20,453 bases of DNA from a virus (Duplodnaviria > Heunggongvirae > Uroviricota > Caudoviricetes). The stretch lies in IMG/VR virus record IMGVR_UViG_2695420718_000008; one strand, 5' to 3'. Below the pieces are notes generated by a model, which was given only the letters and a program-made list of their open reading frames with translations, did not search any database and was not told the origin of the DNA. Positions 921-15,655 of the stretch are shown here, one piece after another. How positions within the stretch are numbered: the stretch's first letter is position 1; the number at the start of each line of letters is the position of its first letter. Position numbers and translations under genes: made by a program.

Positions 921-1255
921 ATTGATAACAGAGGGCGTTGTAGCGGGGTTGTCACTTAAGCGTATGGTCAACCTGACAACCCGGTGCATTTTCTGGAGCA
1001 ATGGAGGAAACCCCAGCCATACTTACCGCCGCGCCATTTCGCGGAGTGCCACAACCGGAAGCGCACGGTCGAACTAAATTTAACGACACCGTACAGAGAG
1101 ACCAATTTCGCCGTGCGCTTTCGCGTTATGCCCTGACTTTTCAGGGACATATCCTTTCAGTAAACTGTCAGTGCCGGATGCTCACCCGTGTCCGGCGCAC
1201 GCACTCCACCTGACCAGTGGAGAACTCCTTAATTACCAACCCTCAGGAGGGTGAA

Positions 1256-1534
1256 ATGGATAAAAAGCAAATTGAGGCCCTGCAATCTATTATTGAAGAA
1301 CAAGATGAAGCTATCAGGATTCTTTCATATCGCACTGATATGATACTAAATATGCTTTCTGCATTAACGGCTGCGCTTGGTGGTACAAAAACAAACGTAT
1401 ACCGCGAAGTTGTTATTCAACAGATAGATAAATTTGAAAAAACCATACCAGGTATTAATGCTCATCTTGCAGAACAAGAGAAAGACCATGCTCTTATGGC
1501 AATTTCTTCAGTAGCTCTCCCGAAAGTTGAGTAG
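1256..1534 (+). CDS. hypothetical protein (92 aa), AT-rich, convergent with the 133-aa minus-strand gene
   Basis: ATG at 1256 preceded by AGGAGG (CAGGAGGGTGAAATG); product MDKKQIEALQSIIEEQDEAIRILSYRTDMILNMLSALTAALGG...; low GC relative to flanks; oriented against the surrounding leftward operon. Confidence 0.45.
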   Translation: MDKKQIEALQSIIEEQDEAIRILSYRTDMILNMLSALTAALGGTKTNVYREVVIQQIDKFEKTIPGINAHLAEQEKDHALMAISSVALPKVE

Positions 1535-1895
1535 TTTTAATTGTTGTTTTGAAATAATCACTGCTTTCACATTTGAGTGATTTCATGGCAATCCAAATGC
1601 GGGCCTCTGTGCCTGCATTTGGTTCCAGTTGCTGTAGACGTTTTGCGTCTTCCAAAAGTAAGGCGATAATGTGTTTCAGCTTCTCATCATTTGCTTGATT
1701 CTTGTTTTCAGGCGAATTCTGTCCGCCGAATAGGCGCTTCTCTTCATACAGACCTATAAAGGCACGACGCACGTTACCGGATATAGTATCGATGGTTTCC
1801 TTTTCTACAGTACTCAGGTCAAGAGTCGCCAGTTGAGAGCGAATCACATTCGCTGCCATTTCCTGGAATGGCATTGGTAAATCTTTAAATTCCAT
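1494..1895 (-). CDS. hypothetical protein (133 aa) inserted in the dicB operon between ydfC and dicF
   Basis: Track ORF on the minus strand; product MEFKDLPMPFQEMAANVIRSQLATLDLSTVEKETIDTISGNVRRAF...; AT-rich; same strand as the operon. No family recognised. Confidence 0.5.
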   Translation of the reverse strand: MEFKDLPMPFQEMAANVIRSQLATLDLSTVEKETIDTISGNVRRAFIGLYEEKRLFGGQNSPENKNQANDEKLKHIIALLLEDAKRLQQLEPNAGTEARIWIAMKSLKCESSDYFKTTIKTTQLSGELLKKLP

Positions 1896-1917
1896 TATTA
1901 GCCTCGTTGGTTAGCTA

Positions 1918-2704: not shown

Positions 2705-3166
2705 CTACTGGTTACGTTTCTTTAGTGCCAGCATGTTCTCGAAGGCTTCCTCGTAGAGCTTGTTTAGTCCACGTAGCTGGTTAAGGAGTTTGGCTTTTTC
2801 TGACGCAGGTAGAATCTCGAAGAGGTTAAGTAACTCTGCCTGTTCTTCATTGACCAGCCTCCATCCTTTGCCTGAAAAGTTATCATCATAAGTATCTGAT
2901 GATCTTACATAATTCATTAAGTCTTTAAGGTCTTCTCGAATGTCCTCTGGTTTTACCTTTAACAGAGCCGCAAATTTTAGCGCAGCGTCGGTATTTACCG
3001 GTATCTTGCCGTTCAGATACTGGCTAACGGTGCCTTGAGATTCGAATCCCAACAACTCAGCCGCCAGCTCTTGAGTCAGCTTCAGCTCTTTTTTTCTTGC
3101 ATTCCATGCGGCTTTTAAATTCTTGCTCGCTTCTGGAGTTGCAATCACTTCGCGTGTTTTTTTCAT
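2705..3166 (-). CDS. prophage repressor, DicA/RacR-like (N-terminal XRE-type HTH)
   Basis: 153-aa product with HTH-like segment LTQELAAELLGFESQGTVSQYLNGK; divergent from the cro-like gene across a 107-bp intergenic region holding a palindrome; C-terminal region resembles DicA. Confidence 0.7.
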   Translation of the reverse strand: MKKTREVIATPEASKNLKAAWNARKKELKLTQELAAELLGFESQGTVSQYLNGKIPVNTDAALKFAALLKVKPEDIREDLKDLMNYVRSSDTYDDNFSGKGWRLVNEEQAELLNLFEILPASEKAKLLNQLRGLNKLYEEAFENMLALKKRNQ

Positions 3167-7609: not shown

Positions 7610-7739
7610 TTTTATGGATCACCTTTCTGATTGATTTCATATTGGCGAGGTGACGTGAGTTAAGTAGAATGGCTGCGGGTGCTTGAGGCTATCTGTCTCA
7701 GGCATGAACACTGAAAGGCAGATAGAGAAAAGCCCCAGT

Positions 7740-7810
7740 TAACATTTCGCGTCCTGCAAGACGCTTAACATTAATCTGAGGCCCAATCTATGTCTCACAA
7801 ATGTAGGTTA
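7740..7810 (-). ncRNA. predicted Sok-like antisense RNA of the hok locus (position inferred, not sequence-verified)
   Basis: hok-family loci encode an antisense RNA complementary to the leader around the mok start; a minus-strand TTGCCT-N17-TAACCT candidate promoter lies at about 7847-7819. Boundaries are guesses. Confidence 0.25.
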
Positions 7811-7846
7811 GCCTCTTACGTGCCGAAAGGCAAGGGGAAGCAGGCT

Positions 7847-8002
7847 ATGAAGCAGCAAAAGGCGATGTTAATCGCCCTGATCGTCATCTGTTTAACCGTC
7901 ATTGTGACGGCACTGGTAACGAGGAAAGACCTCTGCGAGGTACGAATCCGAACCGGCCAGACGGAGGTCGCTGTCTTCACAGCTTACGAACCTGAGGAGT
8001 AA
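7847..8002 (+). CDS. hokD: Hok/Gef-family type I toxin (HokD/RelF-like)
   Basis: 51-aa product MKQQKAMLIALIVICLTVIVTALVTRKDLCEVRIRTGQTEVAVFTAYEPEE matches remembered HokD; an in-frame upstream ATG at 7790 (MSHKCRLASYVPKGKGKQA) is mok-like; the leader 7676-7790 resembles the hok mRNA 5' end (GCTTGAGGCT...). Confidence 0.85.
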   Translation: MKQQKAMLIALIVICLTVIVTALVTRKDLCEVRIRTGQTEVAVFTAYEPEE

Positions 8003-14491: not shown

Positions 14492-14567
14492 GGCCCTTTA
14501 GCTCAGTGGTGAGAGCGAGCGACTCATAATCGCCAGGTCGCTGGTTCAAATCCAGCAAGGGCCACCA
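14492..14567 (+). tRNA. tRNA with CAU anticodon (Met or lysidine-dependent Ile2; ileZ-like position)
   Basis: Hand-folded cloverleaf: acceptor GGCCCTT/AAGGGCC, T-arm GCTGG-TTCAAAT-CCAGC, anticodon loop CTCATAA, encoded CCA 3' end. Confidence 0.8.
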
Positions 14568-14667: not shown

Positions 14668-14744
14668 GCGTTGTTAGCTCAGCCGGACAGAGCAATTGCC
14701 TTCTAAGCAATCCGTCACTGGTTCGAATCCAGTACAGCGCGCCA
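14668..14744 (+). tRNA. tRNA-Arg (anticodon UCU)
   Basis: Hand-folded cloverleaf: acceptor GCGTTGT/ACAGCGC (one G-U pair), anticodon stem ATTGC/GCAAT with loop CTTCTAA, T-arm ACTGG-TTCGAAT-CCAGT, encoded CCA. Confidence 0.8.
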
Positions 14745-15208: not shown

Positions 15209-15655
15209 ATACATATCTGGATTATCACCGGTTACGGTAAAAAGTGATTGCTTACTGTTTTTGTGAATGGCATTGCAGCAGCCGGATAATGTCAGTGCTG
15301 GCTGACGGTGTGCTGGTGGCGGGTGTGGTGGTTGCTGCTTTCCCGTTGCTGAAAAAGAAAACGCCAGACTGTTAGCCGGGTATCAGTTAGCGGGAGAAAT
15401 TTTTAAATACTTCACAATTCAGGCGGTTGACTGTTGTCTGGTTTGCGGGGAGTTTGTTAAAAGAAACTGGCATGGTGAATCCCCCTGTGCGGAGGGGCAA
15501 TCAGCGAGTAGGTATATGGGATAATCGCGGATTCAGGTGCTGGTACTGAATTCACCGGGAGGCACCCGGCACCATGCAATGGCACATAGCGCCACTCTCC
15601 AGCCCCTCTCCGGAGGGGCTGTTTATATTGATTTTGTCAGATGTGAGTAAACTCC

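Follow-up and report, generated by a model that had tools for sequence, protein, structure and literature searches.

Time and again, prophage genes that adjoin the repressor and oppose the lytic operon in direction have proved to serve phage exclusion or abortive infection, as rexAB, sieB and bstA exemplify. The SieB protein is, presumably, a membrane protein. In Rac, the genes follow the order racR, ydaG, ydaF (encoding a YdfA homolog), sieB on the opposite strand, the small RNA (sRNA) gene kilS and the division inhibitor gene kilR, and sieB overlaps the 3' end of ydaF by 4 bp. The cI-to-N region of lambdoid phages, where rexAB and bstA are located, is a hot spot for mosaic diversity (PMC8585504), and sieB is known to be expressed from the prophage (PMC10883804). 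For the dicBF operon of Qin, those passages of the published accounts that name ydfC, dicF or dicB describe the interval from ydfC to dicF as no more than a 'long untranslated region' and make no mention of a block of genes there (PMC5069750, PMC6206680). The subject of this report is that same interval in a tailed-phage record of 20,453 nucleotides (Caudoviricetes; IMG/VR record IMGVR_UViG_2695420718_000008; the whole stretch is called the window below), where a 656-bp block carries two convergent open reading frames (ORFs), ORF92 on the plus strand and ORF133 on the minus strand.

The account preferred here, with modest confidence, is that ORF92 is a 'moron' occupying the slot that belongs to sieB in Rac, read against the early-left promoter PL from behind a structured leader; that ORF133 is a separate mosaic early gene; and that the overlap of their 3' ends is incidental.

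A 656-bp indel in the early-left operon

The window is an E. coli lambdoid prophage, whose stretch 850-2200 is 100% identical to strain ML35 and others. Pairwise alignment with K-12 Qin (NC_000913) shows a single clean gap of 656 bp at window positions 1242-1897, with mostly identical flanks; thus, the block is an indel polymorphism. Bounded by ydfC on one side and the DicF leader on the other, it contains exactly the two genes, i.e., ORF92 (the cargo gene) with its Shine-Dalgarno (SD) sequence and the whole of ORF133. The block is absent from canonical Qin, and in Rac the analogous slot holds sieB.

A sequence-only reading of the window had drawn the borders of the insertion at 1217-1900: the insertion is real, its true extent slightly narrower. 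The block had also been called AT-rich, which is correct, if moderate in degree, with a GC content of 40.4% (37.3% in ORF92) as against 51.1% in the left flank, 45.2% in the right flank and 48.5% in the window. The coordinates proposed for ORF92 (1256-1534, plus strand, 92 amino acids, aa) and ORF133 (1494-1895, minus strand, 133 aa) hold exactly; the near-consensus AGGAGG SD sequence is found at 1245-1250, five bases upstream of the ORF92 ATG, and the 3' overlap, estimated at about 41 bp, is exactly 41 bp (1494-1534). The first observation is confirmed: the block and both ORFs are more than chance. The Prokaryotic Genome Annotation Pipeline labels both products hypothetical proteins, and no literature citing their protein accessions was found.

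The block behaves as morons do, being present or absent among closely related prophages and differing from its neighbors in base composition. No terminal direct repeats, such as a transposon or integron-like insertion would leave, were found at its ends. A hairpin, ACCAAC ... GTTGGT, was considered as well; it is a weak 6-bp pairing with the insertion point as its loop in empty sites, and it is not relied on because it is disrupted in K-12. In the window, its arms (1235-1240 and 1906-1911) bracket the cassette as an inverted repeat; empty sites are seen in the loci L028-L030.

Around the block, the backbone, the gene order and DicF are those of the dicBF operon of Qin as set out in the relevant passages of its description (PMC5069750), with 656 bp and two genes added here. 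The order ydfA-ydfB-ydfC ... dicF-dicB-ydfD downstream of a DicA-type repressor gene, recognized already in the sequence-only reading, is upheld by the Rfam match to DicF, by family matches and by the Qin alignment. All of these features lie on the minus strand: the helix-turn-helix (HTH) repressor gene at 2705-3166, ydfA (DUF1391) at 2296-2451, ydfB between ydfA and ydfC, ydfC at 1918-2136, the DicF sRNA, which forms the downstream end of the slot, at 868-919 (RF00039, 77 bits, E 9e-16), dicB at 496-684 and, in the same operon, a ydfD-like DUF1482 gene.

Occupancy of the site was counted in 5426 complete E. coli genomes, 2850 of which have the empty, K-12-type junction. ORF92 is present in 125-127 genomes, a second, 'type-B' cassette in about 198, and the full 1351-bp context of the window in 52. 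Carriers of ORF92 include E2348/69 (enteropathogenic E. coli, EPEC), 042 (enteroaggregative E. coli, EAEC), CE10 (neonatal meningitis E. coli, NMEC) and avian pathogenic E. coli (APEC) strains.

Two genes and their overlap

ORF92 (1256-1534, plus strand) is read against the early-left, PL-type operon and belongs to the family phrog_18692. Its product is acidic (isoelectric point 5.1) and predicted to be soluble, and an AlphaFold2 model places helices at residues 3-41, 46-59 and 69-85 (pLDDT 71, pTM 0.43). In comparisons of the window with orthologs from a Salmonella prophage (L004) and a metagenome contig (L010), at 72-74% aa identity, the ratio of nonsynonymous to synonymous substitution rates (dN/dS) is 0.17-0.25 at a dS of 0.74-0.89; between L004 and L010, dN/dS is 0.08, and dS across all comparisons spans 0.67-0.89. 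ORF92 is a real protein-coding gene under purifying selection.

Relatives of ORF92 are few. A word-indexed search of 5.8 billion proteins returned only 22, from E. coli and Salmonella, and an exhaustive profile search added four more members of about 90 aa at 33-44% identity. The 91-aa cargo of the type-B cassette is a remote homolog (hhalign 95.4%, E 1.8e-8), linked by profile comparison only: BLASTP matches ORF92 neither to this protein nor to a 73-aa cargo found at the same site, and the 73-aa protein stayed unrelated in the comparisons. The ORF92 family is a small group of acidic, helical proteins of about 90 aa. Scans of ORF92 and ORF133 with Pfam, NCBIfam and PADLOC gave nothing above threshold, and profile and single-sequence searches of PDB sequences gave nothing below E 0.4. 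One Salmonella copy (L008, 4001-4318) has lost the last 16 codons of ORF92 together with the whole partner gene; the deletion fuses the truncated ORF92 to the PL leader region, creating a 105-aa ORF with an unrelated tail, and this copy is probably decaying.

That the block is neutral mosaic debris, in which a decaying or non-functional ORF92 is kept by linkage and its antisense orientation is meaningless, is very improbable. In its favor, about 2% of E. coli genomes carry the cassette, which is thus a rarity, and its copies are almost clonal, with at least 99% identity in 121 of 127; most genomes are empty at the site, neither a promoter nor a terminator is found by a consensus scan of the window, and L008 holds a truncated derivative. 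However, dN/dS of 0.08-0.25 over saturating synonymous divergence largely refutes the debris reading, full-length members persist at 33-44% identity in unrelated temperate elements, and the stems of the leader show compensatory changes.

ORF133 (1494-1895, minus strand) is a composite of three parts, with the N-module first, then the core microprotein and finally the tail. PHROG matches divide the protein in two, residues 1-62 making up the N half and residues 69-117 the C half. The N-module (1728-1895, minus strand; approximately residues 1-56) is common to proteins with other C-terminal halves: more than 100 proteins, 104-166 aa long and covering 41-49% of the ORF133 query, are 79-93% identical over this segment and have a different C half, and such proteins are located at the same site between ydfC and dicF. 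The core (1575-1691, minus strand; residues ~69-107; KLKHIIALLLEDAKRLQQLEPNAGTEARIWIA), referred to below as the KLKH core, has 107 relatives with variable tails and exists as a stand-alone form of 44-48 aa across Enterobacterales. Its dN/dS of 0.06-0.18 indicates strong purifying selection, and its segment retains 79-85% nucleotide identity in the phages phiES15 and pAEv1818. In Enterobacterales prophages the core (LKHVIALLLEDAKRLQQLEPNAGTEARIWIA; P0216, P0198 and others) is nearly invariant and is followed by many alternative C-terminal tails; the genera are Escherichia, Salmonella, Cronobacter, Hafnia, Erwinia, Mixta, Serratia and Citrobacter. The idea that a 12-bp inverted repeat within the core (1593-1622) acts as a terminator or other RNA element was rejected, the core showing ordinary protein-level selection and saturated synonymous sites, with no T-run after the repeat.

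In Salmonella, the partner of ORF92 consists of core and tail only, 71 aa in all, and equals the C-terminal half of ORF133. The tail (1494-1574, minus strand) comprises about the last 26 codons, including the 41-bp overlap. Between the core and the overlap, the proportion of nonsynonymous differences (pN) is 0.49-0.64 versus about 0.78 for synonymous ones (pS), which is almost neutral, and the tail looks less like a selected domain than like an extension by read-through.

Within the overlap itself, the window differs from L004 by three synonymous and three nonsynonymous changes in the ORF92 frame and by none and seven, respectively, in the ORF133 frame; from L010, by four and three in the ORF92 frame and none and six in the ORF133 frame; and L004 differs from L010 by three and none in the ORF92 frame and none and three in the ORF133 frame. 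Every substitution in the overlap is nonsynonymous in the ORF133 frame and the ORF92 frame is conserved, so ORF92 is the frame under selection there. The identical 41-bp overlap recurs in a distant family member, L016, and the length is constant because the conserved A-L-M codons of ORF92 supply the stop codon of the partner in antisense. A nearly neutral tail, together with selection on only the ORF92 frame in the overlap, argues that the overlap is a by-product of a minus-strand frame running to its first stop.

Convergent transcription units with overlapping 3' ends are also characteristic of some type I toxin-antitoxin loci, e.g., txpA/RatA. In contrast to these, both genes here are protein-coding and assort independently, no small hydrophobic toxin is present, and there is no sign of a regulatory RNA at ORF92/ORF133. 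The sequence-only reading had called the layout typical of small accessory or regulatory modules, toxin-antitoxin and anti-defense genes included. A functional pair of toxin-antitoxin type, or an overlap that marks such coupling, finds no support: the two genes assort independently, the ORF133 tail is nearly neutral and neither protein matches a toxin, antitoxin or defense profile. A functional pair could take the form of a toxin-antitoxin system or of a defense gene with its self-immunity, as in P22 sieB/esc, in which the C half of ORF133 would neutralize ORF92 during lytic growth and the overlap would couple their expression. Pointing that way, ORF92 and the KLKH core stay paired, with the identical 41-bp overlap, from E. 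coli to Salmonella (72-74% aa identity), the type-B homolog of ORF92 is again convergent with, and overlaps, a gene that shares the N-module, and NCBIfam gives a weak RelB-like antitoxin match, sub-threshold at E 0.014 and 15.6 bits versus a cut-off of 50. However, no threshold is reached by any toxin or antitoxin domain, with none in Pfam and nothing relevant in PADLOC, and the 41 bp are explained by the A-L-M codons.

At the same site between ydfC and dicF in other E. coli prophages, the same N-module is fused to a 'type-B' C half, and this half faces a convergent, 3'-overlapping ORF that is either the 91-aa ORF92 homolog or the unrelated 73-aa protein (phrog_7249). In phiES15 and pAEv1818, the KLKH core bears another tail and faces an unrelated cargo of 93-95 aa with a 30-bp overlap, and elsewhere the core stands alone at 44-48 aa. 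Genes of the ORF92 family, in turn, occur without such a partner, alone or facing a repressor or integrase gene, in L016, L017, L019 and L020, and as the truncated copy beside the repressor in L008. Cargo without partner, core without cargo and one partner half with two cargos argue against an obligate two-gene module, and the obligate co-occurrence and co-variation expected of a type II toxin-antitoxin pair are not found for ORF92 and ORF133. These patterns lend no support to a toxin-antitoxin module or any obligate two-gene module, and a functional pair of any kind is improbable.

Leader, slot and expression

The cargo ORF is preceded by a structured leader (1173-1255, plus strand) that is shared between loci up to the start codon. 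RNAalifold predicts in it hairpin H1 (1173-1196), hairpin H2 (1204-1222), whose arms are fully different yet complementary in L010 and L016, and a stem in which an anti-SD sequence, CTCCT (1225-1229), pairs with the AGGAG (1245-1249) of the SD sequence, with a UA-to-AU compensatory change in three loci; all three elements are on the plus strand. The consensus has 20 pairs, three of which show compensatory changes. Strand preference is evident in H1, where two G.U pairs are possible on the plus strand only, and in folding energies relative to shuffled sequences, with z values of -2.9, -1.8 and -5.3 for the plus strand and -0.8, -0.5 and -2.4 for the minus strand. With permissive settings, Rfam recognized nothing in the leader region.

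This leader (type 1; GCCGGATRCTYAYCYGTGTCCGGCGCAC...GGAGG-N5-ATG) was seen in the window, in L004, L008, L010, L011, L013 and L016, and in K-12 (L003). It precedes three different cargo ORFs, namely type A, type B and the 73-aa ORF, and K-12 Qin keeps it (L003, 2563-2650) without SD sequence or cargo. Its sequence and predicted fold can be read as a 5' untranslated region that would limit translation of the cargo. What follows the type-1 leader differs between sites: apart from some empty ones, there is a site that holds another short ORF and a site where everything from H2 onward is replaced. With one genome taken per species, the leader is confined to Escherichia and Shigella, barring a Chryseobacterium sp. 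assembly (L026) and a Collinsella metagenome-assembled genome (L030); these two have the exact Escherichia-type leader, most likely through contamination with, or mis-binning of, E. coli prophage DNA, and in L026 another short ORF (32 aa) stands behind it.

A second leader type (GGTGGTATNNT) carries an extended -10 motif, TGGTAT(A/G/C)(A/C/T)T, i.e., GGTGGTAT(A/G/C)(A/C/T)T, which was read by eye in L019 and L020. It precedes ORF92-family genes in these two loci and the unrelated 93-95-aa cargo (MFSVRVELRN..., phrog_8894) of phiES15 and pAEv1818. The sites lie at 480-540 in L019, 255-300 in L020, 2030-2075 in L021 and 2035-2080 in L022, and the motif overlaps a CCACC...GGTGG hairpin.

In the window, the repressor is followed by ydfABC and ORF133, next comes ORF92, on the opposite strand, and DicF and dicB close the series. 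In three Salmonella Rac-like prophages (L004, L006, L007) and in the metagenome contig L010, the 71-aa gene comes immediately after the repressor and is adjoined by the ORF92 ortholog, on whose far side, wherever that flank is covered, there is a KilS-like sRNA; L005 has two extra genes between the 71-aa gene and the repressor. Of the more distant relatives, that in L016 converges on a repressor-like HTH gene, and those in L019 and L020 converge on cI repressor genes of the S24 type. The exception is L017/L018, where the ORF92 relative is convergent on an integrase gene and the repressor is not in view. In L019, a strong leftward promoter (TTGACA-17-GATTAT, TG-extended, 10/12 matches) lies between cI and the ORF92 homolog and fires into the latter, and a terminator-like hairpin follows the homolog directly; no such hairpin was found after the homolog in L020. 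Across the locus maps, the prophage-borne members consistently stay close to the repressor and point against the early lytic operon. The sequence-only reading had spoken of an accessory module transcribed against a repressed early operon, which describes ORF92 well.

The KilS-like sRNA terminator region of the Salmonella Rac-like prophages occupies the position of DicF (approximately 3720-3780 in L004 and 1906-2003 in L023), and no Rfam model detects KilS in Rac or in L004 and L023. On the strand of the PL transcript, a hairpin at 1131-1146 of the window (minus strand; CCCTGA-AAAG-TCAGGG) bears a superficial likeness to the boxB of lambda (GCCCTGAAAAAGGGC); it is conserved in Salmonella L004 and degraded in K-12.

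ORF92 thus sits in a sieB-type position: it lies inside the early-left operon but on the opposite strand, with the genes near the repressor to one side and the kil and sRNA genes to the other. Slot and geometry are those of sieB in Rac, P22 and lambda, and the Salmonella Rac-like prophages put the ORF92 ortholog exactly where Rac has sieB, a gene whose family (phrog_6399) PHROG places in the category 'moron'. The proteins differ, SieB having 162 aa and ORF92 being a 92-aa, acidic, soluble protein with no sequence similarity to it. Lambda rexAB, BTP1 bstA and the moron concept in general offer a second likeness, an accessory gene adjacent to the repressor that is present or absent and distinct in base composition; however, rexAB and bstA run in the same direction as cI, from the promoter of that gene, whereas ORF92 is convergent with the repressor gene and with PL.

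Several results weigh against the view of ORF92 as a sieB-slot moron. The slot is equated with that of sieB by position, an analogy only: ORF92 matches phrog_18692 and no other PHROG, not the family of Rac SieB, and no transmembrane segment is predicted in ORF92, unlike what would be expected from SieB. No PADLOC defense model matches ORF92, and fold searches with it return generic helical bundles only. In 50,697 GenBank phage records, tblastn finds no match to ORF92, which is therefore known only from prophages and contigs. A consensus scan of the window found no plus-strand sigma-70 promoter upstream of ORF92 meeting its criteria, and no terminator follows ORF92 before 1941-1958. A candidate cargo promoter, picked by eye, is weak: TTTTCA-17-TAAACT (1138-1166, plus strand) ends 6 nt before H1 and matches 8/12 consensus positions, below the scan threshold.

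If the preferred account of ORF92 as a sieB-slot moron holds, the early-left operon of Qin/Rac-type lambdoid prophages would contain a recombination hot spot, flanked by the small genes near the promoter and by the DicF/KilS sRNA, and the block would be one of its alleles. ORF92 would be a self-contained accessory gene on the strand opposite PL, with the anti-SD stem of its leader covering the ribosome-binding site. In the lysogen, where PL is repressed, ORF92 would be transcribed and its product made at a low, leader-limited level; upon induction, strong convergent transcription from PL would traverse ORF92 and shut it off. The product, possibly dimeric, would most plausibly benefit the lysogen, e.g., by interfering with superinfecting phages. 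ORF133 would be a separate early lytic gene recombined from two conserved small-protein modules, with its last ~26 codons and the overlap arising as a by-product of reading to the first stop inside ORF92. Judging by the architecture and by analogy with repressor-adjacent genes of other prophages, ORF92 may be expressed in lysogeny, silenced by PL and active in exclusion or defense; a defense or anti-defense function is possible.

Farther along the window, Rfam recognizes the sok antitoxin RNA (7677-7852, plus strand), next to hokD in the annotation of ML35, two tRNA genes in the late region (14492-14564 and 14668-14741, plus strand) and the sRNA STnc100 (15441-15630, plus strand), all ordinary features of lambdoid prophages.

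Molecular activity and meaning of the cassette

A further reading concerns the molecular activity of ORF92 and is compatible with the architecture of a moron. It holds that ORF92 is a diverged AroQ-type protein with the chorismate-mutase fold, which would form a helical dimer with swapped domains and bind either ligands resembling chorismate or host shikimate-pathway enzymes, and hence metabolic or pseudo-enzyme cargo, not an exclusion factor. The closest comparator is the AroQ-delta chorismate mutase of M. tuberculosis (MtCM; Rv0948c, PDB 2qbv), which likewise has about 90 aa and three helices with a long first helix. NCBIfam PRK07857 matches the family proteins P0143 (E 6.4e-5) and P0144 (E 3.9e-4) and ORF92 of the window (E 0.054) in one register, TIGR01808 also matches P0143, and among the weak Foldseek matches of ORF92, chorismate mutases recur. 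BLASTP aligns P0143 with MtCM at 36% identity over 58 aa (pairwise E 2e-4), one in 5000 shuffles of MtCM reaches the real score, and hhalign joins the ORF92 family to 2qbv at E 7e-4 over 55 columns, although its probability is just 26%. Both the GGT(K/R) loop and the R-E motif that follows it align with those of MtCM, and the profile match, albeit sub-threshold, is repeatable. Residues R26 and R50/E51 of the ORF92 family align with MtCM R35 and R58/E59, which we take to line the active site.

The scores, however, fall far below the curated cut-offs: for PRK07857, the best is 22.7 bits (P0143) against a threshold of 73, with 13.4 bits for ORF92 of the window, which has no Pfam CM_2 match either. 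The E. coli chorismate mutase (EcCM) aligns with the ORF92 family over helix 1 only. Its catalytic residues are assumed here to be R11', R28, K39, R51, E52, S84 and Q88. In the alignments, the equivalents of R28, R51 and E52 are kept in the ORF92 family and that of R11 is a glutamine in ORF92 of the window; the equivalent of K39/R46, presumably the catalytic cation of chorismate mutase, is absent family-wide, and that of Q88 is an invariant proline. Unlike MtCM, then, the ORF92 family lacks some of the presumed active-site residues. A search of the literature on prophage chorismate mutases found nothing relevant.

The similarity of ORF92 to AroQ chorismate mutases is accordingly best treated as a tentative lead, not a classification, and an AroQ-type activity in place of exclusion is rather doubtful. 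A combined version, also unlikely, would make the ORF92 family AroQ descendants without the catalytic cation, expressed behind the structured leader in the sieB slot, either as a pseudo-enzyme binding a host shikimate-pathway enzyme or chorismate-derived ligand or as a soluble exclusion or defense factor. If true, the conserved leader with its exchangeable ORFs would be a new 'expression platform' for cargo in lambdoid prophages.

The cassette is genuine and uncharacterized, an accessory element at a hot spot of a kind already known. The finding carries a correction: convergent, overlapping small genes need not mean toxin-antitoxin, and the overlap here is a passive result of mosaic recombination. 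The shared, covarying leader is a sequence handle for mining further cargo at the site. ORF92 itself is a conserved, selected and uncharacterized occupant of the sieB slot, and its presence in well-studied pathogens (EPEC, EAEC, NMEC and APEC) makes it a cheap and specific candidate exclusion or defense factor.

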